Source: Octopus sinensis
Taxonomy: Eukaryota
Length of the DNA stretch: 64,000 bases
Reading direction: 5' to 3'
NCBI RefSeq assembly: GCF_006345805.1
Contig: NC_043017.1
Span: 11,222,001-11,286,000 of the forward strand
In this document: piece by piece, positions 30,561 through 55,426 of the stretch
Position numbering within the stretch: the first letter of the stretch is position 1
Layout: the number at the start of each line of letters is the position of its first letter
The notes under the pieces: model-generated
The model's input: only the letters and a program-made list of their open reading frames with translations
The model's database searches: none
Told to the model about the DNA's origin: nothing
Program-made: the position numbers and the translations under genes

Positions 30561-30727
30561 ACTGGTTGGATGTCAAGACCTTCTGGAAGATATTCCTGGA
30601 CGTACGAGAAGAGATTCTTTACAGCTTATGTTTTCCAGCCCAGGTGAGAGTCGTAGTCTCTTACGTGGTGGCAAGACAGGCAAAAGCAATAGTAAAACGT
30701 ATAGTATAAAAGATGAAAATTTGTCAA
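30561..30727 (+). CDS. PKN: PKN exon, C2-like strand plus variable loop (LVGCQDLLEDIPGR...DENLS)
   Basis: poly-T ttgtAG acceptor, A|GTGAGT donor; AG|A gives R then LVGCQDLLE.IPGR as in PKN; phase 2 to 1. Confidence 0.95.
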
Positions 30728-33700
30728 GTGAGTATTCACGTCCTGGGAGATGTCCTTCACTTAGCATGAGATCCTTTAGCCTATTATATATATATATACA
30801 TATTATATAACATAATAACACTGTACTATAAAAACCATAGCTTTAATTAACAGCAGGAAATTACCACTAAACCCTATCGTGCTTCTTACAATGATGATTT
30901 AACAAACTAATAAAATCATAGATGAAGTCATTGATTATGTAAGAGACTGAGAGAGCGTGAGAGAATATATTTGCATTTTAATAACTAATTATTAAGACTT
31001 TGCATTTTAGCAAGTAATTATAATTAAGTGTTTGCACATTGATAACTAACTTTTACTGACATATTTTTTTACCTTCTCTATTTTTGTCTCTTCTTCCTCC
31101 TATGAGCTTTCCTTCCCACTGCTCTGATATTTCCTAAGTCTCAGTCCCCTAATGTTTTGAATGTCTATTCACCTCTTTAATAATCTATCATTATTATTAT
31201 CATTATTATTATTATTGGGTTATATATTTATTTAGCAAAACAGTTTTAAATCTGTGATGTATAGTTCATAAACATATCTTGTTGATCTGACCATAATGAT
31301 CTTAGTCTCTTCGTGTTTTGTATGTCTCTTCAATTTTGCAATAATAATTATTATTGTTACTAATATTATTATTATTATTAGGTTATATATTTATTTAGCG
31401 AAACAGTTTTAAATCTGTGATGGTCTACAGTCCATAAACACAGCACCTTGAAGACCTGACCTTAATGATCTTAGCCGATGACCTCATCTTGTAACCCAGC
31501 ACTTCAGCCATGCATCAGCACAACCCCAGTCTGCACTTGGTCCTTAAACCCATCACCTTGACCATTCAACCAACTGTCCACACTTTACAGCCAATGTCTC
31601 GTCTCAGTATGACCTTAAATTTCAGTTAGGAATGATCTCTTTTTCTATTTTTTCCTTTTTTTTTCTCTTTTGCAATATGCAACTAGGACAGGAAAAGATC
31701 TTGGTTAACACAGATACATACACACACAAATATATATATTTATATTGTATGTTCTTTTATGTATGGCAGTATGAATTATTGATCATGTACCTTGTGAAAT
31801 CATGTACTGGAAAAAAATTAACACTAGATGGCTATAATCACAATCTCTATAAGTGTGAAACCGGTGTCTGACCACTGGTATGATGAAAAATTTCAATAAG
31901 CAAATTTTAACCGTTTAGCATTCAGATATTCCTCTGTCAAATGTAATGCCTATTTATTCACGTAATTTCAAGATTTTGAGTTGTTTATTTTTAGAATGAC
32001 ATTGAAGAGTGGGTGTGAGAGGCTGGATCTGACTGATTTTGATATAAAGCAGGAAGAATGTTTGAGCTAGAGAAGGCCAGTTCAAATGCTGAAGGGTTAA
32101 ATGAAAGATGTACTGGAGAACTTGTATAAAAAAAGACATTTACATAAAATATTTCGTTTTTATATTTAGTTTGCAAGATTCTTGATGTGAACTTGTGTGT
32201 TGGAACAGATTTTGTTGTATCTGGGTGTGGGGAGTCATTGTGCCAATAATAGACACACATACAGATTGTATGTTTGTTTGTTATTGTGTATGTGTGTGCA
32301 CGTATTTTTTTTGTGGGGTGGGGCATTGAAATAAGTACCAGTCAAATACTGGGGTTGATGTAATCCTCCTCCTCCTCCTCCAAAACTGTTGGCTCTGTGC
32401 CAAATTTGGAACCCTTATTGTGTGGATGTTCATTATAGGTATTGAAATTTACATCAAAACAAACTGGGAAATAGTTATTGAAATTAAAATAAAATAAAAT
32501 AAAATAAAATAAAGTAGCAGGGCAAATTACCATCCTGAAGCATTCTGTTGGGGCATGGGGCCTATTGTTTGTAAACTGGTATGGTCTTGGAAAATCAAGA
32601 CATGTGGACATCACATTCTAAAGTCATTTCTTAATCAGCTTAAATGATAAGCTGCCTAGAACTGCTAAACTATTGCGCGTTGTCGGGCGTCACCGTTTGC
32701 ATTGCGGTAGTAGCACGTCCACCTCCCGGTCGTTTCGGCCCGCACAGTTCCACCGAGGGTGCTCTTCGCCGAGTGTCCGAGGCGGCCGGTACGTTCACAC
32801 AGGGATGAGGTTTCTGCTTGTTCAGTGGTCTCCAGTCCCCAACAAACCAACCATGATACATTCTGAGCATTCGATAACTGAACATGATCTGCATTACATG
32901 ACTTTATAAAGGCTGTGGCTGCAGGCAATGAAGCTCTCGCCGTTCCACAAGTTCATCGGAGTCTGTTCAGGCACTTCCATAGGGGTTGTGCAACATCTGA
33001 TATGACAGATAAATAGAGGATGTCAGTAAAATATTCAGTGCCTAACAAGACTGGTGAAGGAGGCTAATTTTAGGGGTTATATATATATATTAAAAGAATA
33101 GTTATCTGTCTGTAATTAGATTTAATTAATGCTGCTTGTGCTAGCTAGCTAGCTTGGTATAATTAACTTTAATTATAGGCTGTGTTTGCTCTGGAAGAAG
33201 CATCCCTCCCCATCCTAAAATAAGTAAAAAAAAAAAAGGCCTCCAAAGTCATGGTTCGGGATGAGTGGCAGGATGTTAGAGAAGTGTTAATATGGCAACA
33301 AAAAATAACAACAGCTGAAAAAAAAAGTGTTGCTTTAATAGTAAAGATAAACTGTACGGGAGGATGCATGTGTTTGAACGTCTGTTGATGGACGAGACCA
33401 CACGTGCATAGAGTAAGCACAAAACCACCCACTTCTACCACCACCACCACCACCACTGCTGCTGCTGCTGGGGGAATGGTGTATATCGCATTTGATGGCA
33501 CAAAGGACACATGGGCATATTTGATCTGCCCCAATTTCAGGAACATATACTCAGGGATAAAAAAAGTCTTTAGTGCCTTAAAGCATGTTTGTATATTGAA
33601 CCCAAAGGGGACGTTTTTGAGACATTCTTTTGGAGGAAAATTATATCTCAGATGCCTTCAAATATGGTAACCAGGTGGATGTAGAGGAAGTGTGAAGAGA

Positions 33701-35665
33701 AATTTAAGACTCCACTTTTGTTTTGCTTTGTTTTCTTAACTTCCTGACTGACCAAAGCATTTTCCATAAGCTTGTCCTAAACATCCGTGATTGTTTTCAG
33801 TCTTTTAGTTAGGCCTTGCTTCATATGTTCTTAGTAAAATTAGGCTTTCCCTTTTTAAGTCCCAAATTAATCTGGTGGTTGAGAAAAAAATAACTGGAAA
33901 CGTGTCTCATATATGGTTAGAGACATCTTAGCAGCATCATACGCCCCCCCCCCCAAGGAAATCAAAGCACTGAGCGATATGGTGTTTATTGATTGACAGG
34001 ATACATAGATCAGAATTGGGACCCTAAATCCGTGAGGCCTCCAGACAACAGCCCAGTGTGCTCATGTCTTAAGACGGCCCTTTATATGAGGGTACATGGA
34101 TGCCAGGGAAATATGTCCTGGGTATCACATGTCACACACAGGACTGACATGGAGATTTTGGTCCATGGCACATCAGCATGAAAATGAAATATTTAAATGA
34201 ATGCTATGGATCAATCCCATTCTACTACTTGCTGGTTGTCCAGACATTTGCAGTGGGAGGTGGAGAATATATTAAAGTGAATGGGTGTGTGTGTATAACT
34301 AATACTGAAGGGCAGTTCTTAGAACTATTTAATGAATTTGAATCTTAGAAAATTAGGTTTTACAAAGTGAAAATGGAGAGGTTTAGAAGTTGGTGATAAA
34401 AGGCTGAGAGGGAGATCATATCATGTAAGGGCTTTTGATGTTGGTATTTTTGGCTGACATAATTACAGTTGTTATTATTTATTTGTAGCTGGTCATTATT
34501 TGTTATCTGTTTAGAGTGATGAGTAACTAACTGTAGCAATTATCAATCGTTGTGGTAAGTTAGAATGGTCACTAGAATGTGTTAGGGTCAGCGATTGCCT
34601 CTTTTGACCTGAATCAGTGTTGGAAATATATTAACGATAAAATGTGAAAACTGAACTCTATGTTGGTGTACTGTAAGATAAAGTGAGCACTACATGCTTA
34701 TATATGCACACACACACACTTACATACATACATACATGTACACACACACACCATTTATCTTTTACTTCTTTCAGTCATTGAATTGCAGCCATGCTGGAGC
34801 ACCACCTTGATGGTTCCAGTTCAACAAACTGACCCCAGTACTTCTTACAAACCTGGTACTCATTCAGTCAGTCTGTTTTGCTGAACTGCTAAGGGATGTA
34901 AACAAACCATCATCGATTGTCAAGCAAAGGCTGGAACAAATACACACACATATGTATATATACACAATAGGCTTCTTTCAGTTTCCACCTATGAAATTCA
35001 CTCACAAGGCATTGGTCAGCCTGGTTCTCTATAAGCAGACCCTTCCCCAAGGTACTGCAGAGTGGGACTGAACCCAAGACCACGTGGCTGCAAAAGCAGC
35101 TCTTTTGATATAAGATCGTACGGATTACTATATTGTTCAAGGCTGTCTGTTGTGATGTGCCTTCCAGGCTTTTCTCTTTTTGATATGGGGTGACAAAAAT
35201 AACGACTATAATTAGTAGGTTAATGACAGTGAGAGTTAGCATGAATCAGAGTGGAAAATATTTGTATGAGAGAATGGAAGAAAGATGGGCTGTAAGCTGG
35301 TGGGTTCTGGAGAGCAGAGACAATTGTATGTGACTGAGAGTGTGTGTGTGTGTGACTGTATGTATGTGTATATGCACACAGAACTAGACCTCAATTATCC
35401 AAAGGAGATAAGTAGAGGAGTATATGCATGTGTGTGTAATGCGTATGTATGTGTACAGGTGTGTATGTATAAGTGTGTGTGTGTGTGTATTTCATGCGTA
35501 TTTCAAGCATACAAGGGAAAAGTCGACTGACTTTGAAGCTTTGGCTTGATTGCCTTCTTGAGATCATTTGATGAAGATGAGTAATCGAATCCGGGTTGAA
35601 CCAGCCTATGATTAAAAATGTTCCAGAGTGAACCTTTGGGTCTGTTTATATATTGAAACATCAAC

Positions 35666-35748
<83 letters not shown>

Positions 35749-36949
35749 GTTTCCTTTTCCTTATTTTGTCTTAATGATAGCAAGATGTAATCTGAGGAGT
35801 GATATTGGTTGTTGTTTCTAGCTGCTTGCTTGAATGACCACCTAGAGTTTCCCTTCCTGGTTTGGGTTTTCCTCATACACAATCTTGTTGTTGTTGTTTA
35901 GACCTGGGTCAGTTCTGACTGAGAAGAAACCTGTTATTATCTCACTGGCTTCCTAATCCAATGGCACTCATTTACAACTATTGAAGGATATCAAAGCAAA
36001 TAGATACAGACACACATTGTCATCAATTATTAATGTCCATGTTCTATTGTCGCATGAATTGGATGATTTTCTCTAGAGTCTTGCTCTGGCATGGTTTTTA
36101 CAGCTGGGTGCCCTTCCCAACACCAACCACATTATAGGATATAGTGGTTACATTTAAAAAAAAATTTTTTTGTACCACTGGCACTAGTGAGATTGCCGTG
36201 CAGTTTGCAGGACTACAAAACTTGTGTCAGGATGGGAGTGGAACAGCTTTATGTAACGGGCTACTGAGAGTTTCTGTCTACCAAATCCATTCACAAGGCT
36301 TTGGGCAGCCTGGAGCTATAGAAGAAGACACTCGCCCAAGGTTCCATACAGTGGGACCAAACCCAGGACCATATGGTTGAGAGGATTACTACTGTATAGG
36401 GCCACTTGATATATTTTCTGAGTAAACAACAATAGTGTTTTGGGTTGTAAGCACTGTATGTTCTCTGTCATGCATGACTGTATCATCATGTTGTATGGTG
36501 TCCATTCATGCATGACTTCTTTCTCATTCTGTGTCACTCTGAGAAGTCTATTTGTGTGTATCTTCTAATCTATGTTGATGTTCTTGTTGTTTAGTTCAAG
36601 GTTTGCTTTGACTTTGTAAAAGTATTCTATTTATGACTAAAACCATTTCAGGCCCTTTATTGGTTTTCTGTTTGGTGGTGGTGGGACAAACCACAGACAG
36701 CATTATTGAATATGTCACTCCCTTTTCAAGATGGTAGGATGCAATTTAAAGATTTGGCTACTATTTCTAACCTCTAGTCAAGTGACCTTGTAGAAACTTC
36801 ATTGTTAGTAGTTGGGGATTCTTTTATATCTGTATCTGGTTGATGTGTGTGTGTGTGTGTGCTATAGTTTTATTTCTGAAATTACCTGACATAAATCAAT
36901 GTTTCGAATTTTTTCCCTAAACTACACTTTCATTTTCCATTCTAATAAT

Positions 36950-37337
36950 GGAATGGAAGCACTCCGTTGGTTACGACGATGAGGGTTCCGGTTGATCCAA
37001 ATCAACGGAACAGCCTGCTCGTGAAATTAACATGTAAGTGGCTGAGCACTCCACAGACACGTGTACCCTTAACATAGTTCTCGGGGATATTCAGCGTGAC
37101 ACAGAGAGTGACAAGGCCGGCCCTTTGAAATACAGGTACAACAGAAACAGGAAGTAAGAGTGAGAGAAAATTGTGGTGAAAGAGTACAGCGGGGATCACC
37201 ACCAACCCTGCCGGAGCTTCGTGGAGCTTTAGGTGTTTTCGCTCAATAAACACTCACAACGCCCGGTCTGGGAATCGAAACCGCGATCCTACGACCGCGA
37301 GTCCGCTGCCCTAACCACTGGGCCATTGCGCCTCCAC
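36950..37337 (-). mobile_element. tRNA-derived SINE family D, full length
   Basis: minus-strand head GGAGGCGCAATGGCCCAGTGGTTAGGGCAGCGGACTCG...GGTTTCGATTCC; flanking CATTCTAAT(A/G)AT direct repeat; related copy at about 63209-63490(+). Confidence 0.8.
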
Positions 37338-39164
37338 ATTCTAATGATACAGCAGTGGAGGTAGCAAAGCATAGGTCTGTGATTTGAGAAAACTTATCTT
37401 GGGGAACAATAGGGACCATGGAATGAAGAGAGACAGTTGGAATGGTGATAGTAGTAGTAGTAAATTTTGTTATACTGTATTATTAGCAACTATAATAATA
37501 ATTCTTTCTACTATAGGCATGAAGCCTAAAATTCTCAAGGAGTGGCTAGTCAATTACATCGACCCCAGAGCTCAACTGGTACTTACTTTATCGACCCTGA
37601 AAGGATGAAAGGCAAAGTCACCTTCAGCAAAATACCTAACAATATCCTGCTTGTTTTTACATTCTAAGTTCAAATCTTGCCAAAGCCAACTTCAACTTTT
37701 ATTCTTTCAGGGTCAATAACATAAAGTAATGGTCAAGTACTCAGGTCGATGCAATTGATTCTCCGCTCCCCAAAAACTTTCAGGCCTTCTACCTAGAGTA
37801 GAAACAATTATTATTATTCCCCATTCTGTTTTTTCCTTATGTCTTTGATGATGTTTATTCTAGGTTTATATTCTTTAGTAAAGTCTTCTGCTTGTTGTTG
37901 TTGTTGTTGGAAAGTCTGTCTTCGCTGGCTGGTTCCTGTCTTTTGTTTTAGCTTCCTTCATTCTCTTCTTTATGTCTTTATCGATCTTCCTATGTTTTCT
38001 TACTTCCTTCTGTTTCAATCTTTGCTTTCCATGGAGGTGCATGGCTTAGTGGTTAGGGTGTTGGACTCGTGATCGTAAGATTGTGATTTCAATTCCTGAA
38101 TCGGGTGACACATGGTGTTCTTGATCAAACCTCTTCATGTTGCTTTAGTTCACTCAGCTGGCAAAAATGAATGGTACCTGTGATGGACCAGTGTCCCATC
38201 CAGCAGGAGCATATATATATCATCATCATCATCATCGTTTAACGTCCGTTTTCTGCGCTAGCACGGGTTGGACGGTTCGACCGGGGTCTGGGAAGCCAGA
38301 AGGCTGCACCAGGCCCAGTCTGATCTGGCAGTGTTTCTACAGCTGGATGCCCTTCCTAACGCCAACCACTCTGCGAGTGTAGTGGGTGCTTTTTACGTGC
38401 CACTGGCACAGGTGCCAGGGGAGTCTGGCAGCGGCCACGATTGGTTGGTGCTTATATATATATATATATATATATGTAAGAAAATCCAGGAAACCAACCT
38501 GAGGAGTTTACATGACTCGGGAAGGGGCTTTATCCTTTATTCTTTTAATCTTAGCTTTCTGTACTTTTCTTTTCTCTATCTCTCTCTCTCTCATGCACAT
38601 CCACCCATATACCCACCTCCCCTGTACATCCAAAATCTAGTTTGCCAGCAATGGTTTAGGTTTATGACTGCTTACCCCCTTCTCCCTCCTAGAACTCCAC
38701 CTCCTGTCTTTACTGTCACAGTTTTGTATGTGTTTGTGGTATAAGTCTCAAGGCCTTCTTCAAACAGGAGTACGGTGTGTGTATGGGTGTATGTAATTTT
38801 GTGTAAATTTGTGTGTGTGTATATGTAAATGTCTATGTGTTTAGATTATTATGTTACTGGTAGGTTGTGGTGTGAACTTGTACCGAGAGACTCTCCTCGG
38901 CTTGTATGGATCATTGTTGTCAGTGAGTGAATCTGTGTGAATGTTCTCCTCTTAATGTCGGAGACTAAATAACGTAAACAACATAACACCATGAAGTCAG
39001 AAGCTTTAATATAAATATACCAACATTTATTGCTTCTTCATTGCTACCTTTTTCTCTCTCTCCCTCTATCCTACACCAGGTGTTTCATGCTTCAGTGCAT
39101 CTCCTACACACACACACACCCACACCCACAGTCTTGCGCATTCTCTGTCTGTCTGTCTCTCTTT

Positions 39165-39203
<39 letters not shown>

Positions 39204-39779
39204 GCACACACACACATCTATGCAGTCAGTACAGCTGCACCCTGTACACTTTTATTACTGTCAAATGAGAGATACCACTATTAATTCTATTTATTGTACC
39301 TGTGTAGGGGGTGGGGGATCTTTTATTTTGTCTTTGTTTACTTGTAGAACACCCTCTGTCTCCACCCCCCACCCCCACCACCCTCCTTCTCTCTTTCTCT
39401 CTCTCTCTCTCTCTCTGTTCTTGTTAATTGTCTTGGGGCAGAGATGCAGCTAACTTTTCTGTAACCTAAGAGAAATAAATAAAAAAAAACTGTCTTTCTC
39501 TCTTTCTCTTTGTGAATGTTTGTCTCTTTTGTGTAGATGTCTTCTTCTTTTCTCTGTCTGTCTGTCTCTCTCTCTGTTTGTGACTTTCGCTTCGGCAGTT
39601 TTCTCTATTTCTGCCTCTACGTCTTTTGTCTTTCTGTGTCTCTTTCTCTCTCTCAGTCTCTCTCTCCTACTCCTGATGCATCTACCATTATTTGCACTAC
39701 ACTACTGTCCACACACACACACATATATCTACACTGATTTACTTCCTAAATATAACTGAAAGATAACCTATTATTCCAG

Positions 39780-39807
39780 TACATATATGTGTTAGTATAT
39801 ACGTATG

Positions 39808-39889
<82 letters not shown>

Positions 39890-39893
39890 GTAT

Positions 39894-39938
<45 letters not shown>

Positions 39939-40056
39939 TTATATATATATATATATTATATATATATATATAGTATATATATATACACATACATGCGTGT
40001 GTATATTTGTGTGGGTATATATATAAGTATGTATGTATTTGTGTGTATGTCTATAA

Positions 40057-40087
<31 letters not shown>

Positions 40088-40137
40088 CACATACATGCGT
40101 ATGTATATTTGTGTGGGTATATATATATATAAGTATG

Positions 40138-40177
<40 letters not shown>

Positions 40178-40229
40178 CATACATGCGTGGGTATATATAT
40201 ATAAGTATGTATGTATATATGTATATATA

Positions 40230-40267
<38 letters not shown>

Positions 40268-40340
40268 CATGCGTGTGTATATTTGTGTGGGTATATATAT
40301 ATAAGTATGTATGTATTTGTGTGTATGTCTATAAATATGT
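39780..40340. repeat. TA-rich microsatellite with higher-order CATACATGCGTG...GTGGG units
   Basis: directly visible. Confidence 0.9.
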
Positions 40341-40464
40341 GCTTCTCTTAACATTCCCTTACACAATGATTAAAAAAAAAAAAGAATGGAAAAAAAATAT
40401 ATAAAGAGCCTAATTTTGTTGTTGCTGTTGTTATTGCTCTCAAATATTGTCAATAAAATTTTAG

Positions 40465-40545
40465 GTTCCACTGCATCGATTGAAATTGATGGAGCCGAAC
40501 AGATCAGCCTATTGTTTAAACAGTTGTTAGGAGAGGATATAAAAG
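40465..40545 (+). CDS. PKN: candidate 81-nt cassette exon of PKN ((S)STASIEIDGAEQISLLFKQLLGEDIK)
   Basis: attttAG acceptor, AAG|GTAAAT donor, length 3n, stop-free in the phase-1 frame required by the host intron, in non-repetitive sequence. Confidence 0.55.
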
Positions 40546-42918
40546 GTAAATCCAGCACGTAGACGACTACCAAGCAGCCCCCCCGTTGTAAGAATAGGAA
40601 TAGCAAAATTGTGCACTGCTGTAAAAGGGGTAGGTGGAAGGAGAAGGTGTACACACCCACACACACACACAGAGGCAAGCACCCCTGTATGATCACGTCT
40701 TTTAAACTCCTTTTGACAAACCAGCCTCATTTGCCTAAAGCCACCCTCTTGATTCTAACGTACATGACTGCCTGTTTTGAAATGTTCATATTTATTTATT
40801 CATTCATTTATTTATTTATTTATTAAAAACCATCCGTTTTTAATTCCATGTGAGAACTGTTAAAGCTATATTCCAGACATGAGTTTAATAATGGAAAAAA
40901 AAAAAAATAAATAAATGATTAAAAAGTTATTTTACTAAATTTGGTAATAACTTGATTACTGCTTTCATACTAAACTGAAACTTAAAGCGATGGTATCCCA
41001 TTATTAGAAATGTAATAACGAGCTATTAATTGTTCCCATAATTATGCATGAAGCTACAAGTTTATGTATTTTTATAATATATATATCATCTTCATCATCA
41101 TTGTCATCATCATCATCCTCATCATTGTTATTCTAATGTCTATTTTTCCATGCTTGCATGGCTCAGACAAGACTTGTTGAGGCAGAATATTCTGCAGTTA
41201 GCTGCTCTTCCTGTTGCCCTCTCCTCACCTGTTTTCGAGTGAGGTAATGTTTCCTGCTTGACCGTCAAACAGCATAAAAGCTCAAATGGCCAAACATGCT
41301 TCTCTGGAGGATTTGCAAACAAACAACAGACAAAACTTGTATGATGGTGACTTTGTTTACAAGCAGTGTACCATGTTTCAGAAGAAATGGGTATACACAT
41401 GCACACACACACACACACGTGCACAATAGGCTTCTTCCAGTTTCTGTGTGCTAAATTTCACTAACAAAGATCAACCTCCAACTATGGTAGAAGGCACCAG
41501 TTGGTGGTGTCCATTACAGTGGAAATGAACTCTGAACCTCATAGCTCCAAAGCAAATTTCTTAATCACACTGCCACTTTACCCACTGTCATCATCATTAG
41601 CTTTACGTCCATTTTTCCATGCTTGCATGTGTTTGAGGGAGTTTTATCGAGGCAGATTTTCTACAGCCGGATGCCCTTCCTGTCACTAACACTCATCTGT
41701 TTCCCAAGTGAGGTAATATTTCCCCATGACTGGACATGCTCTCTCAGAATACGCAAAATGAATGGCACTGCTTGTATGATAGTAACACTCGATTACAGCT
41801 ACTACACTTTGTGAAGACAAGGAGACACATACGCACGCGCTCACACACACGACAAGCCTTTCCAGTTTCCATCTACCAAATCCACTCACAAGGATTTGGA
41901 ACCTGAAACCAAATTCTTACAAAGCAAACCTCTCCCCCTTTGCAGCCTGTCCCATGCCTGTTATATATTTCCATAAATCCATCTAGACTGTCTGAGTTAA
42001 TTCAACTTTGTTTATTTGGGAAGTGAAAGTCTAAGAGAAAAATAAATGATTGTTTTCAAAATTTTTAATTAGATAATAATTATGTCAGTAAAATTATCAT
42101 CAACATCATCATTGTCATTAGTATTATTATCATTATCTTCTTTCAATTTTGTTTCCATTTCTTGCTGAGTGTCTTCCTGACACATTATTATTATTATTAT
42201 AAGTGTAGCGGGCTGGCAGAACCATTACTCTGCTAGACGTAATTCTATGTGATATTTCTTGTCTTTACATTCTGAGTTCAAATTCCACTGGGGTCAACTT
42301 TGCCTTTCATCCTTTTGGGGTCGGTGAAATAAATCCCAGTTGTGCACTGGGGTTGATGTCATCACCTGACCCCACTCTCCCAAAGTTGCAAGCCTTGTGC
42401 CTCTAATCAAAAGGATTATTATTATTATTGTTTTCATGCTAGGCAAAATGCTTAGCAGTATTTCATGCACCTTTATGTCCTGAATTGAAATTCTGCCAAG
42501 GTCCATCTTTTTGGGCTCAATGCAGTAAGTACCAGTTATGCACTGGGGCATTGAATATTGGACTCTCTCCCTCCCCACACATTTCATGCCTTGTGCCTAT
42601 GGTAGAAAGGAGTATCGTTATTATTGTTACTATTAGTTAGTGTTGTTATTTAGGTCAGAATTAGTAAAGTGATGGACAAAAGGACCTTGACATATTTTGC
42701 TTGATTTTCAGTTGTCTGTCTCATTAAAAATGAAATTATTAGTTGATTACTGGGGTTGATTCATTTTACTAATTAATACCCCCTGTCTCTAAAAATTAGT
42801 GGTTTTTGTGCATATATTAGATTGCATCTATATCGTTACCTCATCATCATTATTGTTTATTACTATCATCCTTCATCATCATCATTATGATTACTGTTAT
42901 TATTATTTTAATTTTTAA

Positions 42919-42950
<32 letters not shown>

Positions 42951-43263
42951 TCAACTAATAGTATCTCTTGTGTGAATGAAAAAAATTAATTAAAATATAC
43001 TTGACAAATTGTTTAACAGAGCTAATTGTCTTCTTGCCATTGTTAAAGTTTTTTTTCTTCTTTTTCTTCTTATTGATGTTGTTTCACACGCTGTTTTAAA
43101 TGTGTTTGAAATAGTGTTTGTTTGTCTGTCTGTCTGTATGTCTCTCTTTGACTGACTGACTGTCGCGGTCGGGATATTTATTCGCAAAATACCAAAAAAA
43201 AAAAAAAAAAAACAAGTTTGATCTTCTCCTTGATAACTCACTGCACCCTGCTTTCAATTTCAG

Positions 43264-43296
43264 GTGGTGCACCCACAGAGTGTTGTGTTGACAATG
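43264..43296 (+). CDS. PKN: candidate 33-nt microexon of PKN (GAPTECCVDN)
   Basis: ctcactgcaccctgctttcaatttcAG acceptor, ATG|GTATGT donor, symmetric phase 1, stop-free. Confidence 0.65.
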
Positions 43297-43587
43297 GTAT
43301 GTGAAAAAGCAACTTTTTAACTGGTTGCGTCAGCGACCAAACTGTTGCTGTTTCTACACACCCCGAGAGCCAAAAAAAAATATATATTTAAAAATTAACG
43401 ATTTCAAAAAAAAAAACCATCTTACATGTGTTCTTGACTGTTTGTTTCAATTTTTCAAATCTCAATTTGTTTGATTTCTTTTTTTCCTCTCCCTTACCTC
43501 TCTGCATTCCATATTTATTAATATCCATTATTGGTATGACCTTTTTTTGGTTATTTTTCTTTTTGTCTTTCTTCCCACCTCTGATAG

Positions 43588-43591
43588 CTTC
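43588..43591 (+). CDS. candidate 4-nt microexon CTTC (phase 1 to 2 switch)
   Basis: first AG after about 215 AG-free, pyrimidine-rich nt is followed by CTTC and a perfect GTAAGT donor. Confidence 0.35.
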
Positions 43592-43913
43592 GTAAGTAAA
43601 TCGTCTTCTGTTGAGTTTTTTTTTTTTTGTTTTGTTTTGGTGTTGTTCTTCTGTTTATTTGAAAAATCTTCAATTCATTGATTTTCGTTTTTGTATGGTC
43701 ATGGTGTTTTCAGTGGAAAAATACAAAAAAGAAGCCCTTATTATCTTTTCTTTCATTCATTCTTTCTTTCAGTCTTTGGTATCTTCTGCTGCTAAGTGTT
43801 ACTGTCAATATGAAGATTTAACTTCAGTGCTTATACATACATACATATATATATATATAAAAATATATATAATATATTATATATTATATATATATATATG
43901 CACACCACACACA

Positions 43914-45010
43914 TGTTGAGTTGTCAGATAAATTCAGGGTCCACCCACCTATTTATTTTAATCTTTATTTTCCATTCAAAGATGTTAACAAATCAATCCA
44001 ATATCTTCTCCTTCATTGTTCAAGACTTCTTGACTTCTTGTCAATATTCTACAAACTTACCAATTCCTTGACTCAGATTCATTGAGCCACCTTCTCAGTT
44101 TTCATCGATGTTCAACAAATCACCTTACAGACGGTCAGAAAGCGATCAAAAAGTCAATAATTTGAAGGCAGTTCCTCAAATAGTATTTTTGGTCTAGTTA
44201 GTGATGTGGGTGGTGGGAGGCAGCCTTGTTGCATTGGAGAAATATGCAATGTTGCCATTTTGGCTTGTTTCACTCTGGATGGCCTTGTTGAGCAGGTGCA
44301 TTGATTGTGCAGTTGTTTTCAAGCATTTTATTGTGTATCAGCCCTTTGCAGTCCCACCAAATGCAGCTCTGGCTTGGCACCAGCCGGTACTTGCTTTTCA
44401 GGATTCGGCTATTGTTTGTGTCCAAGAGTAGCCTGATATTGCACGAGCAAATTGGTGGAGATGAAAGAGCACTGGAATTTGTCTCTTTTGTTCAGAGTGT
44501 GTGATGCCCCTGCATTGAGTTTTTGAACCTTACCCATCGACTGAAAGTGACGGGCAGTGGTCTTGTGGGAGGATCCCATCTGCTGGACCAAGTCCCTAGT
44601 GAACTGACATAGATCCCTGCCGATGAACATATTCAATCGATCTACATTGAACTGAATGAGCTGGCAAGATGCCAAGTCTGTGAAGTCAAATTTTCCTTCT
44701 TTGAAACTTGGAAACCATTTCCGTGTAGTTCTTTCAGTAATTGCTTCTCTGCACACAACACAGATGTCTTCAGTGTCTTTGACAGCTTTGGGATCAAAAA
44801 TGCTTGTTTCCTTTTTTTTTTACTATTTGGCATTCTGTCATCATATTTCTGAAAAAAAGGTAAAATTTATTCAAATTTCAAAACCTAAAGTTGGAGAGGA
44901 AAAATAGAGCTACAAAAAAAAAAACTAAAAAATATTGCAATTAAAGTATTTTTCGTATTAATTTAAATAACATTGAAAAGAAACCTACGAATATATCTGA
45001 CAACCCAATA
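43914..45010 (-). mobile_element. decayed mariner transposon
   Basis: imperfect TIRs (TGTTGAGTTGTCAGATAAATTC / GAATATATCTGACAACCCAATA); minus ORF 44409-44756 AITERTTRKWFPSFKEGKFD...TRDL...HKTT.RH..SMGKVQKL matches the mariner transposase HTH region; stops and frameshifts. Confidence 0.85.
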
Positions 45011-45337
45011 TACACACATACCTATATACAGGGGTTTCTCCTTCAAATTTGTCATTATAGCTCTCAGTTTAATTTTCTTCTGTTTTGATTACCCTGTTGT
45101 CTATCTCAATTCTGGCATTGTTAACTAATTTAAATGTTGTCACTGTAAAATGGAGCAGATTTTTCTCTTTTTTATTAATTAACAGCCAATTACATCAGTG
45201 GTTAGTCCTTGCAGAATTGTAAAAGAATGTAAACATTAGATAGTTTTGTAAGGCATGACAATGTTTTATAGAAAAACTTGTTGTACCCTAAATTACAATA
45301 AAGCTTCGTACATTTGCTAGTTCAGATGTAAAACTAC

Positions 45338-45770
45338 ATCATCATCATTGTTTAACTTCCGCTTTCCATGCTAGCATGGGTTGGACGGTTCAACTAGGGT
45401 CTGGGAAGCCCGAAGGCTGCACCAGGCCAGTCAGATCTGGCAGTGTTTCTACGGCTGGATGCCCTTCCTAACGCCAACCACTCCGTGAGTGTGGTGGGTG
45501 CTTTTTATGTGCCACCGACACAGGTGCCAGACGAAGCTGGCGAACGGCCACGCTCGGATGGTGTTTTTTTTATGTGCCACCAACACAGGTGCCAGACGAG
45601 GCTGGCGAACGGCCATGCTCGGATGGTGTTTTTTACGTGCCACCAGCATGGAGGCCAGGCGAGGCTGGCACGGCCACAATCGGATGGTGTTTGTTACGTG
45701 CCCACAGCACGGAGACCAGTCGATGCGTTACTGGCTATGGCCACGTTCGGATGGTTTTCTTATGTGCCTA
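45338..45770 (-). mobile_element. family C copy with several tandem ~57-60 bp 5' subrepeats
   Basis: repeated GGATGGTG-TTTT-TACGTGCCACC...GGCCA unit next to the family C body. Confidence 0.75.
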
Positions 45771-45873
45771 TACTGTATATGTGCAGGTGTGGTAAGAAGT
45801 TAGCTTTCCAACCTCATGGCTCCAGTATCAGTTCCACTGTGTGGCATTGAGGGCAAATGTCTTCTACTATACT

Positions 45874-45987
45874 ATTTCTCCTGTTTGTTGTTCTGCTTAA
45901 AGTAACATAGGATTGGCCATGACTAAACACTGGCTTTTTGTAGGTAAACCCCAACCATGTCAACGATTGGCTCTGAGACTTATTATG
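45874..45987 (-). mobile_element. Helitron/PIF1 helicase C-terminal motif fragment
   Basis: HNKSQSQSLTWLGFTYKKPVFSHGQSYVTLSR matches INKSQGQ.L..VG.....PVFSHGQLYVALSR. Confidence 0.8.
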
Positions 45988-46364
45988 TATTTCTTTATTG
46001 CTCACAAGGGGCTAAACACAGAGGGAACAAACAAGGACAGACAAACGGATTAAGTCGATTATATCGACCCCAGTGCGTAACTGGTACTTATTTAATCGAC
46101 CTAGAAAGGATGAAAGGCAAAGTCGGCCTCGGCGGAATTTGAACTCAGAACATAGCGGCAGGCGAAATACCGCTAAGCATTTTGCCCCGCGTGCTAACGT
46201 TTCTGCCAGCTCGCCTTTTTTTTTTTTTTTTTTTTAACAAATGAAAGGATAGCAGGGAACTGTCTCCTTTTTTTTCATATTTACATTGTTTTGCTATTCT
46301 GTGATAATTAATCAATGATGTCATTGTTTATTAATTAAAAAAGAAAAAAATTTCCATCATACAG

Positions 46365-46526
46365 TGATGACATGTTTGATGATGAGGAGGAAGTTGAGAC
46401 AGACAGCAATGTAATGCACACTGAACGTAAAGAGATTGTAGGCAATGATGGTAACTTTGAGGCTGATGTTGATGAGATTCAAGTTGATAATGATGAATCT
46501 GAGGGAAGAAGCACTCTCTGCGGGGG
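46365..46526 (+). CDS. candidate 162-nt acidic exon ([53 protein letters not shown])
   Basis: tttccatcatacAG acceptor, GG|GTATGT donor, open Asp/Glu-rich frame entered in phase 2; the phase-1 reading hits TAA. Confidence 0.45.
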
Positions 46527-46555
46527 GTATGTGTGTGTGCACAGGCAGGTGTGCA

Positions 46556-46722
<167 letters not shown>

Positions 46723-47615
46723 TTGTTTGTACCTTAGCAATATACATACATGCATATGTATATATGTGTGTGTGTATATGTAAAAGTACATGATCCAATG
46801 GTTAAGGTGTTGACCTCATGATCATAAGGTCATGAGTTCAATTCCTTGACTGGGAAGCATATTGTGCCCTTAAGCAAGACACTTTATTTCACATTACTCC
46901 AGTCTACTCAGCTGTAAATGCGTACCAGTCATATACTGGTGAAGCTCTCCTTTCCTCCAGCTGTTTCATCCTGGATCAAGGATGAGGGGGCCAGGAGGTA
47001 GTCTGTGTCTGCTTGTGACTTCACAGGCACCTAAAGCAATTAAAGAAAGCATGGTATATGCTACTAAGTTGTACTCATGAATGATGGTTCATATACATAT
47101 ACACACACGTCTGGAGGTACAAAAGAAAGAGTACTCAATCCATGTAAGAGTACAAAAGAAGAAGAAAAAAAAACTGATGATTTACTCCATTACTATGTGT
47201 GATCTTTCAGTCAGGTGATGGATTTCGAATAATTTTGGACGATCTCATATAGAAGAGGACTCTTGAGTAAGCAACAGAGTGAATCATCAGCTTTTGCCAA
47301 ATATATATATGTATAGCAGACTGTTCCATTGTTGGTCAGTTCAACAAAGGAAGTACCTCATCCAGCGAGAGATAAGTTTCATTTAATAAACGTGGGATTT
47401 AACTATGACCTACTGTAAGTTTCATGGTTGGATGGTACAGATATTGGATGGGCTTGTATAACTTGCCGTGTGCTACCCTGCAATTGTTTAGGTTCAAAAT
47501 CCAATTACTGTACTGCTGAACATGAAAAGTATAGTAGCTCACCTATAAATCCTTTATTAAATGATGTTATTGTGTGCATGTATATATGTAACATACATAT
47601 ATTTATTTATTTATC

Positions 47616-47693
<78 letters not shown>

Positions 47694-47709
47694 ATATTAT
47701 ATATATATT

Positions 47710-47757
<48 letters not shown>

Positions 47758-47789
47758 ATTTATATTTATATATATTATATATTTATATT

Positions 47790-47823
<34 letters not shown>

Positions 47824-48169
47824 ATATTATATATATATATATGTAGTTTGCTAATAGAATTAACAGCATATTGAGGAGAGAATAATGTCGTTATTTTGGT
47901 TCTTTTCGTTTCTTTGTTGTTTTCTTTTCTTTTTCTTCTTGTTGGCGCTGTTTGAATGTATTGAGTGATACTCTCTTGTATCTTCTTAATACAGACACCA
48001 AACATACAAACAAACAAACAATTTTACAGTTTGAAGCCCCCCTCAGTAATATATAATATAATATATATCTTCGTGTTTTGTTACTGGAGTTGATGTATAT
48101 ATTTATATACACGCACAGATATATACATAAAATACTTAAATAGATTCTTATCTGTATCACTGCTTTCAG

Positions 48170-48214
48170 CTTTTAAGTTAGCTTATCAGGGATGTCAAAA
48201 TCAACACCATGAAG
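48170..48214 (+). CDS. PKN: candidate 45-nt cassette exon of PKN (FKLAYQGCQNQHHE)
   Basis: atcactgctttcAG acceptor, AAG|GTATGA donor, symmetric phase 1, stop-free; an internal AG at 48188-48189 gives a 25-nt alternative. Confidence 0.5.
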
Positions 48215-49021
48215 GTATGACCATTCTTCCTTACCGTGTATTGTATATTTTTCTTCTTCTTCTTCTTCTTATTTGTTGCTGATATATTAATGGACTTTTT
48301 CAAAGTAAATCGTTATATAATATGTCCTTCGTGAAAAAGCTGTGAATGCTTCTTTAACGACTTTTCTTCAGTTTATTTCTTCCGTTCAGCTAAATGTTGT
48401 TTCATTTTCGTGACGTTTCGTGAAAGCTTTGTTGTACGTATGACTGGTTCTTACACAAACTGACAATTTCATCAGTTTTCTACAGAATTTATCTTCAGAT
48501 GGTGATGAAAGAATAGCGTGATAGATGGGAGCAGTTCATTCAAGCTGTCTCTCTCTCTGTCTGTCTATCTATCTGTCTTAATTTAATGAGGTAAAAATTG
48601 ACCCCCTCTCTTCTTGTTGAACTTCCTTCTTAACCTGTAAATAAAGGTTTAATCAGGTATTTAAAATATATTTTTGTTTCTATTGATCTCTTGATCTTAT
48701 CAAAGTAAACTTTATCGTGTTTACAAGGGAGCTGAAGCAATGCCAGTCTAGTACTGGTTGTCGGTATGATAATCGTCTGTACCTTCATGTAAAAAGTGTG
48801 TGACCTTGTGTTGATATCAAGATAGCAGTGTTGTAAGTTAGCTATGAAGACAAAAAGCAAAGCAAAATAGATAAGAAATAAACAGTTAAATCTGAAAAAT
48901 TCTCATTCAATTATAATGTTTTGTGTGTATATTTAATTATTTCCATGTATATTTAGTTATTTCCCAGCAAAACAAATCATGTGACAGCCATTAAAATCTA
49001 TGGGAATGATTGGTGGATGTA

Positions 49022-49087
<66 letters not shown>

Positions 49088-49730
49088 CATGTGAGCAAGC
49101 ATGTGTCTAAGAAGAAATATAAGTGTTTGTAAAAATGCCTATGTTTCTCGTTAAATTGCACAAAATTTCAATGAAATAGCATTGAAATATTATCATATAA
49201 TGTATTTTATTAATATTTTCACCTCACTGTCCAATAGAATTTAAAACTTTAGAGTTATGTGGAGTTTGTATTAAATTTGACAGTTTGTGTAAAAGCAAAT
49301 GAAAACGCATTATGCCATCTGCATGTCTTTTGTTATATAGATGGAACAAAAAATTAGATGCACAAGCAAACTTACGCATAAATCTTTCAAATATCTCAGT
49401 GCAGAAAATCATCATTTGTTCTATAAGGATTGGTTTCTAAGTTCATTGTGTGAAATGCATAGATACATTTTTGAAGCTCTGAAGAAGCTATAAGGTGATG
49501 CACTTGCACTCAGCTCGGTGTGTTCTACATCATATAGCAGAAACAGCTATAAGCATATGATAATCACTGCATAATTTCCTGTCCCCTTGTCATTTATTTA
49601 ATTTCATATTATGCTCTATACTTGACTAACTCTTTATTCTGAAGCATATATATATATATATATATATATAATGAGTTTTAACACCAGGGTATAAGTATCA
49701 CTATGCCTAAGCAAAATAAATGTGTGTGTG

Positions 49731-49766
<36 letters not shown>

Positions 49767-50109
49767 CACGCATGCATACACACCCACATATACATACATG
49801 TATGTGTATATACTTATTCTATTGGACTCTTTTGCTGAACTGCTAAGTTACGGTCATGTAAACGAACCAACATCGGTTGTCAAGTAATTGGGGGGACAAA
49901 CATATACACACACACACACATATATGATGGGCTTCTTCCAGTTTCCGTCTACCAAACCCACTCACAAGGCTTTGGTCAGCCTGAGGCTATAGTAGAAGAC
50001 ATTTCCCCATGGTGTCACGCAGTGAGACTGAACCCGGAACCATGTGGTTTGCTAAGTAAGCTACTTACCACACAGCCACGTCTGCATCTATGTATGTATG
50101 TATATTGTT

Positions 50110-50490
50110 GGCATCCTTTTGTCTCTGGAGACAATGGAGTTGTGCATAAACTAATCCAGTCGGATTTTTACATTTCATGTCCTCTCCAGTTTTGCGCAGG
50201 CCTGGGCTAGATGTAAGAAAATCCTGGGTAGCCCAATCGTCAGGATTCCTCTCTCAACCTTGCTGACGTAGTCCAAAGGAGTGCAGAGCATTACGTTTGG
50301 CACCAGCTTAGTGGCAGGAGCTGCCGGAAGAGTGTCGAGTCGAACACTGAACCACCTATGGGGCTCCACTCCGGATTTCTTTGAAGGTTGTCTCCTTTCT
50401 GTAACCCTGGATAGGGGCCCATACTGGGTACTGTCAGCCGGAGCCAGCTGAGCCTGTGACTCGTGTCTGGCAGGGTTGTCACTCCCTGAA
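50110..50490 (-). mobile_element. probable RTE-type LINE 5' UTR fragment
   Basis: GC-richer block with GTTTGGCACCAGC...GCAGGAGCTGCC and GTAGTCCAAAGG motifs recalled from RTE 5' regions; not alignment-verified. Confidence 0.4.
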
Positions 50491-52362
50491 GTAATGAAGA
50501 AAATCACTACCCACTACCTATATATGTGTGTATATATATATATGTGTGTATATATATATATGTGTATATATATGTGTGTGTATATATATATATGTGTGTA
50601 TATATGTGTATATATATATATATATGTGTATATATATATATATATATATACATATGCACACACACATGCACAAAACGATATACATAACGTGTGTGTCTAT
50701 ATATGTATGTATATTAGAGAGAGAATTTGATATTTACTGTTCCCATAAACACATGAAACCCTATATTTAGAACTACACATACACGTGTTTGCAACCTATC
50801 TCAGCTAAATATTCCCACTTTTGAAGTTTGCCATTTGATAAGAATTTGATGAAATTAATCATCGTTATCTATTCGGAGCCAATGTGTTCAGTTAAACCTT
50901 TTTTGTTCTCCTTTATTTTTGATGATGACTTTAGACATTAACTTCTGAAATCTAAAAGTCCTGTATTTTTATTTTATTCATTCATTTATGCTTGTACTGC
51001 TACAATTTCTATACTTTTTATTTTTTTTGGTTTTTTACTAATTATTAACTTACTAATTGTTGTAATATATTTTTCTCTTCTTTTGAAGAATTTATCTTTT
51101 AATTTATGTAAGCTCATTTCTTGTTGTTGTTGTTGCTCTTGTTGTTGTATCCTTAATTAAGGCTGTTGTATTCTAAGTGGCAAACATTTATTATTAAGTT
51201 TTTTTTATATATATATATATGTTGACTATATTGTTAGTGCATATCTGTATATATGTGTGTAAGTGTGTGTGTGCACATAAAATAAAAATGTGAGACTGCT
51301 CCAGCATGGACATGATCTTACAGCTCCCATCATTAAAAGAATATAGTAAAATAGGAAGAAAAAACGCATGCACAACAAATGCAGACAAGCTCGACACCCT
51401 TCATCAGTTGTCAACCAAATATCATTACAATTTTAACACCTTGTGACAAAACTGTGCAGTTGGGTGGTGTGAGTGACATAAGCTGCTAGGGTAGAAATGA
51501 GCAGGCATGATAGAGAAACACGAGTAGGGGAAAAAAAATGAGACAAGTGCAGTGACAAGATGAGGTCTGTTAAATGGATGGTAAAGACAAGTTAGAGAAG
51601 AATGAGTAACAAAAAAAAATTCTATCTAATGAAAGAAACAAATTTGACAACAGGAAAAATAATGACACAGAAAGATATTTGTATACCTTAAATGTCTTTT
51701 GACCCCGTGACAGAAATATGATGTGTTGGGGACCAGCTTTTCTTGTATAGATGTTTCATTAACCCTTTCATATTCAGATTGTTCTGTCAGATATAATGTT
51801 TATTTCTTCATATTGTTTTGAATTAATCCTGCATTATCTCCTAGCTTTGAGATTTCAGTGACATTGTTTAAGAGGCCAGATCTGGTCAGTTTGACCATAA
51901 AACAAGTAGAATATTAAATACATAACTGCATTCAAGTTTTATCCTTTTTATTCTAGATTTTACATATTTTCTTAGTTTTTTTTTTTTTGTATAGTATTGT
52001 TTGAAACTAACTGTAAAAAAAAAAAGAAAAAGAATATATTAAAAAATTGGAAATAAAAAGGATAAAATAAGCCTAACCATGTATTTAATGAAATGTGTGT
52101 GTGTATATATGTATATGTGTGTGCATGCATATGTGTATTTATGTGTGTGTGTGCATATTGTATATGTGAAGCGGGGAAAATCCAGGTAATTACCTCAGCC
52201 AACACTCATATGAATATTGCATGAAATTATGTAATTATTGCTTATGTTGATTCTGGTATGTTAAATGATCGATCTAATCCATGTTATTGAAATAATTATA
52301 ATAAAGATGATACCAATATCTACATATATTCATTATGTGTATGTATGTATGTATGTATATAT

Positions 52363-52643
52363 ATACTAAGTAATTAAGGGTTTAGCAACGATTTGCCTCA
52401 CCACACACCGAATTTAGAAATAGCAGTCAAAGAGTTTACCGAATTTAGAAATAGCAGTCAAAGAGTTTACCGAATTTAGAAATAGCAGTCAAAGAGTTTA
52501 CCGAATTTAGAAATAGCAGTCAAAGAGTTTTGGCTATTCTTTCTACTTTTAAGTAGAAAGAATAGCCAAAACTCTTTGACTGCTATTTCTAAATTCGGTG
52601 TGTGGTGAGGCAAATCGTTGCTAAACCCTTAATTACTTAGTAT
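52363..52643. repeat. fold-back palindrome: 93-bp arms, 2-nt spacer, 31-bp unit x4 in the left arm
   Basis: 52551-52643 is the reverse complement of 52363-52548 after removing three extra ACCGAATTTAGAAATAGCAGTCAAAGAGTTT units. Confidence 0.93.
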
Positions 52644-53210
52644 TACTTAAACCTTCCTTGAATGGGGCTTTGACATGCCGAACTCTACTTGGTGAAATTA
52701 ATGATTATTCCAAATTAATTAATTTCACCCTTTATTATTATATATATATATATATAATATATATATATATATACACACATATATACACATACATAGGTAT
52801 ACATATATTGTCTATTTTGTTATATTTATCATGTATATTTTCGGTATTCTGTTTTGCCCATTTTAACCAATAAGACATTAATTAATACATAATTATATTT
52901 ATTTATTTTTATTTGCTATTTCATTTTATTCCACTCTATTTATTTATTAATTTAAAAGTTTGGAAATACCATAATATTTACATATTTAATTTGAATTTTC
53001 TGTTTAAATTTTTTTCTTTCTTTATTCTAAAAAAATTGTTAAATAATTGCCGGCATGTTAAAATCTTTTATATTAATTTTCTTACTGGTTCTATAGTTAC
53101 TGTTGTTGGGTGTTTCAATCTGTATCTTCCCCATATCTGTTGATTGTACATTTATATCCTCTCAGGATTTATTCAGCAAAAACCTAATTTCTGAATAATT
53201 TATCTTCATA

Positions 53211-53586
53211 TAACCCTTTAGCCTTTGGATCTCACTGTCAAAGGTGATGATTATTTATTTACATTAGTTGGAATTAATCCCACTTAATTAATCTCAGAGC
53301 TTCAAGATTTCGATGATGTGATTGCATATTTTTTTTAGAACAACATTGTAGGGTAGGCATGAGAGGTTGGATCAAGCCAGTTTCAACATAAAACTCATAA
53401 TATTTTGACCAGTTCTGGTCGGTTTAAATGCTAAAGGGTTAATGTCCAAGATTTCGATGATGTGATTGCATATTTTTAGAACGACATTGTAGGGTAGGCA
53501 TGAGAGGTTGGATCAAGCCAGTTTCAACATAAAACTCATAATATTTTGACCAGTTCTGGTTGGTTTAAATGCTAATGGGTTAATGT
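53211..53586. mobile_element. TAACCCTTTAGC-type MITE with its right ~144 bp tandemly duplicated
   Basis: left TIR at 53211; right TIR GCTAAAGGGTTAA near 53430 and again near 53571; unit starts at 53303 and 53447. Confidence 0.75.
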
Positions 53587-55426
53587 TCATTTTCTTTGCT
53601 AGTGTGGGTTGGACAGTTTGACAGGATCCTATGAGTCCAGCAGCCACATTGTGCTCTAATGTTGACCATAGCATGGTTTCTATGGCTGAGTATTTTCCCT
53701 ATTGTCACTCACTTTACAAAGTGTACTAGTTGCTTTATTTTATATGGCACCAGCACTAGTGAGGTTGCCATGTAGCTTGCAAGACTAAGATTCTCCTTTG
53801 ATTGAGTCAGGCTACAGTTGAGAAGGAAAATACTGCATATCCAAAGACAAGTTAACTTGGTTCCTGTGTCTCAAGTGCACATGCATGGAACTGAATAAAT
53901 TCGATTCCTGCATAGTAAGGGTTAAAATAGCAAATAGGAAGGATTCAGGGGATAGAATATAGTTTATTTTGTTTTTCAGTGGATGGATGGTCAGTGAAAT
54001 CTTGAAAAGGAAAGGAGCTTTTACTGTAGGTGCCTGATCTTAACACACACCATTGAAATAAAAATAGTAATAAGTCCCCTGACAATTACTGTCTCAAGCC
54101 CCGGGACTCACAGGGTTGATTGACCAGTTCGCATGGTATACAAGCAACCAGGATCACTATTTTCCCCCCCATTGAATGGGGGGCGAGTCCTTCATGGGAT
54201 AACTCAATTTTGCCAGCTAAGCGGACTGGAGCAGTGTGGAATGAAGTGTTTTGCTCAAGAACACAATGTGCTGGCTAGCCTGGGAATCGAACCCATAATC
54301 TTGCAATCATGATTACAATACCCTAACCATTAGGTCTTGTACCTTCACATTGAAATGAAACAAAGGAAAATTCTAAAATTGCCATTTTTTAAAAAAGAAC
54401 ACATAGATTAATATGATTGATCTAATGTTGGAACTTGGATGGGGAGTTCTTGGTGGTACGAGGGTATTTGATCATTGATAAACTATCTATGATTTATGTA
54501 AGAAACTCAGTGCGTGAGATAATGAGCTCAGTCATTGGACTGTAAGTTCACATATCACTGCAGACATTTAGACAATGTTCCAGAGTGAAACACTCAATGC
54601 TTCTTGTCTAAAAACAATTAGCATATTTAAGAATTTTTTTCCTTCTTTTCTTTGTGTTCTGTATATATATATATTTTTTTTTTTATTTATTTGTTTACTT
54701 TTTAGTTGAAGAGAATATTGAAAATATATTCTTTAACTCTTTTGATACAAATTCACCTGAGACTACCCCTAGTTCCGTGATGCAAATCCCCTTCTTCAAA
54801 GCAATCTAAATTAAGACCTTCCATCAAAACTCTGTGTTGATTTGTTTCAGAAAACCAGCTTAATATTGCCAGAGTTACCTTAATGAATTCTTCATTATGT
54901 TCAAAATTAATTGCAACAAAGGCAGTGTATTTTGGGAAGAAATCATCAACATAATCATCACTATCATCCTTTAACATCTGGCAGGGGCTGAATGGTTCAA
55001 CAAGAGCTGGTGAGCCCGGAGACTTGACCAAGCTCCTATGTCTCTGCTTTGGTATTTTCTACAGCTAGATACCCTTCTTGACATAAACCCCTGTACAAAG
55101 TGTACTGGATGCTTTTTATGTGACACCAGCACCAGTTAGGTCACTGGGTAACTTGCAAGGCAAGGCCCTTCAACAGAGTTTGTGGGGGAAATTAGGGCAT
55201 TGAGGGGGGAAATGGGCTTTGTGTCAGGTAATAAAAGATTAATGGTAACAAAAGGGTTAAAAATGATAATGAAAGCCTGAACCAAATTTATATTTTTTTT
55301 TGTTCTCCCTAAATCTTTTTTGTTTTTAAATTATAAAATATTTCCCCTTGAACATTTCAACGTTGAGTTTTTAAACTTGTAACTTATGGTGATTTTTCTT
55401 TCTTTTTCTCTCTTTTGATATTTCAG

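Follow-up and report, generated by a model that had tools for sequence, protein, structure and literature searches.

Three in-frame cassette exons and an alternative donor at a variable loop of the C2-like region in an octopus PKN gene

The window analysed in this study, a 64,000-nucleotide stretch of the Octopus sinensis genome (assembly GCF_006345805.1, contig NC_043017.1, positions 11,222,001 to 11,286,000 of the forward strand), covers the middle of a gene for the Rho-effector kinase PKN. Its exons correspond to residues 186 to approximately 690 of O. sinensis PKN2 isoform X1 (P0026), and the remaining PKN exons lie downstream of the covered part. One long intron of this gene contains three cassette exons of 81, 33 and 45 nucleotides (nt) that are almost certainly real, and the exon preceding the intron carries an alternative donor. 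The explanation that we prefer, with a probability of roughly 0.5, is that the three cassettes and the donor vary a single PKN loop and thereby tune membrane recruitment and phospho-regulation of the kinase, the 33-nt and 45-nt exons being included together in neurons under eMIC/SRRM-type control. The features concerned are as follows, with positions counted from the first letter of the window and inclusion given among 22 public Octopus gene models.

30561 to 30727, plus strand: upstream PKN exon, long form, coding for the first conserved C2-like block and the greater part of the variable loop; donor CAA/GTGAGT, phase 1
30644 to 30727, plus strand: extension of 84 nt (28 residues, basic, Ser/Thr-rich) removed by the alternative donor CAG/GTGAGA at 30643
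30728 to 55426, plus strand: intron of 24,699 nt, GT...AG, phase 1, holding the cassettes and rich in simple and interspersed repeats
40465 to 40545, plus strand: cassette exon of 81 nt coding for 27 partly amphipathic residues; pyrimidine tract weak (9/20), donor AAG/GTAAAT strong; in 8/22 models
43237 to 43263, plus strand: acceptor region of the 33-nt exon, with a branch-point-like CTCAC at -27, TGC at -22 and -15, and 45 nt free of AG; putative regulatory role
43264 to 43296, plus strand: 33-nt cassette exon, 11 residues including Cys-Cys; in 10/22 models, always with the 45-nt exon
48157 to 48169, plus strand: acceptor region for the 45-nt exon, containing TCACTGC, and TGC at -9; putative regulatory role
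48170 to 48214, plus strand: 45-nt cassette exon, 15 residues; in 13/22 models, with a homologue in a cuttlefish-like PKN
49224 to 49267, plus strand: weaker candidate exon of an earlier annotation, acceptor at 49238; unsupported
55427 to 55536, plus strand: downstream constitutive exon, beginning the core C2-like fold

Cassette exons in the long PKN intron

Public PKN2 models of three species contain the peptides of all three cassettes and the two donor forms, identical to the translations from the window (XP_036367851 and its siblings in O. sinensis; CAI9738443-50 in O. vulgaris; XP_052831247 and XP_014767614 in O. bimaculoides), and the cassette sequences match these models letter for letter. 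The 22 models compared comprise 10 from O. sinensis, 8 from O. vulgaris and 4 from O. bimaculoides; they are automatic models rather than read counts, and the annotations may not be independent of each other, as one could have borrowed from the next. At this level of evidence, forms that skip each of the cassettes exist alongside those that include them. A first-pass annotation of the same DNA, made from the sequence alone, had described the intron as a phase-1 intron and the longest fully bounded one in the window, which is correct for PKN introns (the runner-up is 6,604 nt). It had also described three in-frame, stop-free segments of 81, 33 and 45 nt in repeat-free islands, by length only; the coordinates were located in this analysis, and the models of the three Octopus species confirm the segments as exons. 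Each is bounded by AG and GT, lies outside the tandem arrays and has a single match in the octopus genome, namely itself. The description of the cluster as hidden does not stand, as all three exons are already in public isoform models.

The 33-nt and 45-nt exons are the only two segments of the intron that pass a strict splice filter; the same filter passed four segments on the reverse strand and, in 100 shuffles, 3.25 on average (at least two in 79 of the 100), while looser filters gave 10 observed against 5.8 and 33 against 24.7. The 81-nt exon was picked from 24 stop-free AG..GT segments of exactly 81 nt, a choice that the protein models confirm. The motif TCACTG, previously reported upstream of the acceptors of two of the segments and of the 49238 candidate, is indeed found near the 33-nt, 45-nt and 49238 acceptors (at 43238, 48157 and 49224), but it is not supported as a special shared element: it occurs nine times in the intron against 7.5 expected, and among 5000 draws of three random acceptor windows, 45% had some hexamer in common and 16% some heptamer. 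Because the filter counts, the TCACTG frequency and the rate of shared hexamers are all at chance level, the sequence-only case for the cassettes is not above chance, and it is the protein models that establish the exons, with contigs doing so in part. The candidate at 49238, for its part, has no good donor nearby and appears in 0 of the 22 models.

Contigs were checked in 4 of 22 public runs whose labels name no tissue (19 of the 22 are guessed to be RNA) over the span 40270-43800. In run X3, a contig enters the stretch precisely at 40465, the acceptor of the 81-nt exon, after 30 off-stretch letters; in run X10, one enters precisely at 43264, the acceptor of the 33-nt exon, after four such letters. 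Interspersed repeats dominated the joints and loose ends among those listed (15 of 140 and 24 of 960, respectively), and the gaps in coverage (both exons in X13, the 81-nt exon in X8, the 33-nt exon in X3) are not evidence of absence. Contigs from several runs also pass from the cassettes into the intron at 40546-40918 and 43297-43603, which could reflect either nascent RNA or intronic termination.

Two other origins for the cassettes were considered and rejected. Derivation from a high-copy repeat is at odds with the one genome match of each exon, with the reservation that the search skips very common words and that old, decayed repeats are possible. A tandem-duplicated or mutually exclusive exon array does not agree with peptides that are unlike each other, or with the presence of all three together in 6/22 models. 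The 45-nt exon contains two extra AG sites, at 48182 (which would give an in-frame 33-nt exon) and 48190 (which would give a frame-shifting 25-nt exon), neither of which is used in the models seen. Elsewhere in the intron there are tandem arrays at 45497-45768 (65-nt units), 52407-52530 (31-nt units) and 53303-53586 (141-nt units), as well as very high-copy interspersed repeats at 41800-41921 and 42158-42630 that draw thousands of contigs from other places.

Isoform combinations and the loop that they alter

The donor at 30643, which the first-pass annotation missed, acts as a fourth switch and raises the number of possible forms to 16. Its short form is found in 9/22 models, from all three Octopus species, and the long form in 13/22. 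Written in the order long donor, 81, 33 and 45, the patterns 0000, 0001, 0011, 0111, 1000, 1011, 1100 and 1111 occur among the 22 models (8/16). For the cassettes by themselves, the combinatorial module proposed earlier survives in that several combinations are used, but the full set of eight variants is not supported as it was put: five are present, and 010, 110 and 101 are absent among these models, two of the 17 members of the main cluster being unlisted. Every model with the 33-nt exon also has the 45-nt exon (10/10), the 81-nt and 45-nt exons each occur alone, and the all-included form is the commonest pattern (6/22). Inclusion looks nested, with the 33-nt exon needing the 45-nt exon and the 81-nt exon able to stand alone, rather than free.

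In the alignment, the insert junction closes a segment of variable length that is flanked by two conserved blocks of the C2-like region, in agreement with the variable loop of the earlier annotation, the intron separating exons that code for LVGCQDLLE...ENLS and DVMAVMKLDN. Judged by the spacing of Trp residues, the junction corresponds approximately to residue 392 of rat PKN1, just before 398-512. On alignment and literature, it would be the loop that joins the first and second strands, on the side facing the membrane, as in the C2 domains of novel PKCs. The C2-like domain has been modelled as the membrane-recruiting part of a PKN1 dimer (PMC13218154). The Pfam C2 match in octopus PKN is weak and below cut-off, beginning directly after the junction at profile position 21; among solved-structure sequences the C2-like region found only four unrelated matches, all with E above 1, and Atlas matches to C2 clusters, with scores of at most 0.89, are a lead only. 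Relative to the plain skip form, the four in-frame choices shorten the loop by up to 28 residues or lengthen it by up to 53. The insert site lies directly before the conserved block that opens the core fold, and inserts would therefore spare that fold, while the 11 to 53 residues added by the cassettes may change contacts with lipids or partners.

The 28-residue segment under the control of the alternative donor aligns with the region of rat PKN1 Ser377. The Trp spacing of protein P0302 is identical to that of rat PKN1 (65, 8, 20, 80; PMC10956426, which also gives the C2-like region as 398-512), and its residue 377 is a Ser that falls inside the segment. The aligned Ser/Thr-rich motif is kept from molluscs to flies. 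In human PKN1, S374 is reported to have an important part in membrane translocation, in AKT binding and in axon outgrowth (PMC10669522). The octopus gene resembles mammalian PKN1 in the region concerned, in its Trp spacing and in that the serine aligns within the segment that can be removed; it differs in that the available text of the two papers reports no splicing of this loop in mammals, and in that the octopus serine is a predicted phosphosite only. Use of the short donor would remove this conserved basic, Ser/Thr-rich segment, and short isoforms would be expected to lose the phospho-control that it may confer. An acceptor-like site also lies inside the upstream exon at 30639, 5 nt before the short donor; a Sepia pharaonis model (P0016) joins at the equivalent position and is without the first conserved block, which may be a prediction artefact.

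The 45-nt exon appears to be older than the genus Octopus. An assembled protein (P0034, three contigs) that groups with Sepia pharaonis in the tree (support 98/96) has a 15-residue insert at the same junction, with 6 of 14 residues identical to the 45-nt peptide, a score reached by 0 of 100,000 shuffles; the insert is present in one of the four full-length members of its cluster. This homologue argues that the exon predates the octopus/cuttlefish split and is therefore not octopus-specific, contrary to the suggestion of a lineage-specific module as far as this exon is concerned. When the search was narrowed to the cuttlefish-like insert, the O. bimaculoides protein was the sole match, one of eight candidates. 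The 81-nt and 33-nt peptides had no homologue outside Octopus among 381 proteins, of which few are isoforms from other cephalopods, and an Argonauta model outside the count of 22 has the long donor and no cassettes. Unrelated inserts occupy the same junction in Bradybaena (8 residues, 3/8 models), Tubulanus (16 residues, 2/3) and possibly one Lingula-like protein; the residues of the Bradybaena insert have pyrimidine-rich codons, and it may represent an acceptor shift. Unrelated inserts at one junction in Octopus, Bradybaena and Tubulanus resemble the recurrent exon gain termed type I convergence (bioRxiv 10.64898/2026.09.05.749416), with the difference that the non-cephalopod inserts are known from proteins only, unlike the genomic exons of the octopus. 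No junction insert was present in 84/84 drosophilid rows or in 83 of the 86 loop-bearing mollusc and brachiopod rows (five of the 91 rows being without the loop).

Splicing control and competing explanations

A UGC near the acceptor marks eMIC targets (PMC8797185; bioRxiv 10.1101/2024.09.17.613571). TGC occurs at -35 to -6 in 3/3 cassettes compared to 3/18 constitutive acceptors of the same gene (p = 0.015), which weakly suggests eMIC/SRRM-type control. The cassettes are like the eMIC/SRRM3/4 exons described in these two sources in being short and frame-preserving with UGC near the acceptor. The 33-nt exon is also near the fly eMIC-exon median of 31 nt, with a motif resembling a branch point and a long stretch free of AG. 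The octopus genome itself contains an exon matching PF15230 (SRRM_C) above cut-off, on the minus strand of a small contig (L002, approximately 1501-1635; G000:C11337:11167-11301). Octopus splicing is highest in neural tissue, with no departure from other invertebrates (PMC9699675). Neural, eMIC-dependent inclusion of the 33-nt and 45-nt exons would nevertheless be the step of the proposed mechanism with less support than the others.

Several observations weigh against the preferred explanation. The UGC result depends on the window chosen (2/3 cassettes and p = 0.13 at -25; p = 0.04 at -15), and TGC is also present at 35% of 601 random intronic YAG sites. At 33, 45 and 81 nt, the exons all exceed the microexon range of 3-27 nt, and assignment to the microexon class was rejected for this reason. 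The 81-nt exon is without a pyrimidine tract, and no branch-point motif accompanies the 45-nt exon, whose AG-free zone is just 24 nt long; the zones of the 33-nt and 81-nt exons are 45 and 54 nt, and those of nine constitutive acceptors range from 26 to 96 nt, showing no contrast. The introns flanking the cassettes are kilobases long, unlike the short flanking introns of fly eMIC targets, and three Drosophila Pkn exons are classed ASE and not eMIC-dependent in the supplementary table rows available from PMC8797185. A search of the 10 kb beyond the SRRM_C match did not turn up the exon expected next. The rule linking the 33-nt to the 45-nt exon may break, as two of the 17 members of the main cluster are unlisted, and the cassette peptides are identical wherever present in the three Octopus species, an outcome with a chance of about 17% for 50 residues at 3.5% protein divergence (36 mismatches in 1030). 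Both contigs that start at an acceptor continue past their exon into intron sequence, a behaviour expected of partly spliced RNA, and no exon-to-exon joint was found among the 15 of 140 contig joints listed. Lastly, we infer the equivalence of rat S377 and human S374 from the numbering in the paper.

The leading alternative is that the exons are real and regulated but neither neural nor eMIC-driven, belonging instead to the programme of another tissue or developmental stage or being controlled by YCAY-binding proteins, a family of the Nova/Pasilla type. We consider this somewhat unlikely. It would account for exon lengths above the microexon range, for the weakness and window dependence of the UGC signal and for the fly Pkn exons not being eMIC targets, and the shared TCAC is also compatible with YCAY. 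It sits less easily with the branch point, two TGC motifs and 45-nt AG-free zone of the 33-nt exon, and Nova/Pasilla-type control in particular with YCAY motifs that occur near the cassette acceptors as single copies, not clusters. The preferred explanation can also be extended to a fuller scheme for coleoid neurons, which we regard as unlikely. It proposes a one-intron splicing dial on PKN with an eMIC-driven 33/45 pair (its 45-nt member dating from before octopuses and cuttlefish split), an 81-nt exon that acts independently, a donor that deletes the loop equivalent to Ser377/Ser374 so that splicing replaces control by phosphorylation, and independent inserts at the same junction in other lophotrochozoans.

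It is less likely again that the exons amount to low-level splice variants which a permissive loop tolerates, and which persist because they keep the frame and have little effect on the kinase. Loop length and sequence do vary widely across animals, the inserts at this junction in a snail and a nemertean are unrelated, contig depth over the exons is low, and the exons are skipped in the Argonauta model and in three of the four cuttlefish-like proteins; against this, the 45-nt exon has kept its length, its position and 6/14 residues across the octopus/cuttlefish split, and the most common model is the one that includes everything. A contribution from intronic termination, whereby the 81-nt or 33-nt exon reads into the intron to give a short HR1-only protein without the kinase, is very improbable: the contigs from both acceptors run approximately 120 to 190 nt into the intron, read-through would soon meet a stop, a few codons on, and there are poly(A)-like hexamers at 40822, 40906 and 40918, but partly spliced pre-mRNA accounts for the same contigs, no poly(A)-like hexamer occurs within 600 nt after the 33-nt exon and no such truncated model is among those seen.

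Precedent, significance and wider gene context

The public PKN2 models are silent on tissue, regulation and function, and a literature search, with most subscription journals outside it, found no publication on octopus PKN2 splicing or on these cassettes. PKN is not mentioned in the available main text of a preprint on octopus microexons and neural splicing (bioRxiv 10.64898/2026.09.05.749416), and 24,410 searchable characters of the PMC9699675 supplements gave no match; the isoform annotation of the latter study may hold these exons. Apparently, this is an annotated but undescribed cassette cluster plus alternative donor in the regulatory loop of a kinase. It is no new kind of system, as clusters of short in-frame cassettes in long introns are ordinary in animals. 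The points of most value are the donor that removes a likely phosphosite, the coupling of the 33-nt and 45-nt exons and the age of the latter. If the neural reading is true, the locus would give the study of the cephalopod nervous system a concrete, testable target of splicing regulation in a Rho-effector kinase tied to axon growth in mammals. It would also supply a naturally occurring deletion of a loop under phospho-regulation, one that is little understood in any PKN.

The gene has the architecture of a PKN/PRK kinase, with Pfam matches to three HR1 repeats, Pkinase and Pkinase_C, all above cut-off, and the solved structures closest to octopus PKN are the kinase domains of PKN2 and PKN1. 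Near the start of the window, at approximately 1400-4300, there is a degenerate TA repeat of about 3 kb with a GC content below 10% and a G-only skew at its core. The octopus PKN models have at least four distinct N-termini, two of which begin after the first HR1 repeat or later (with exons upstream of position 21439 that fall outside the window), and from these differing N-termini, alternative first exons add a further layer of PKN variation.

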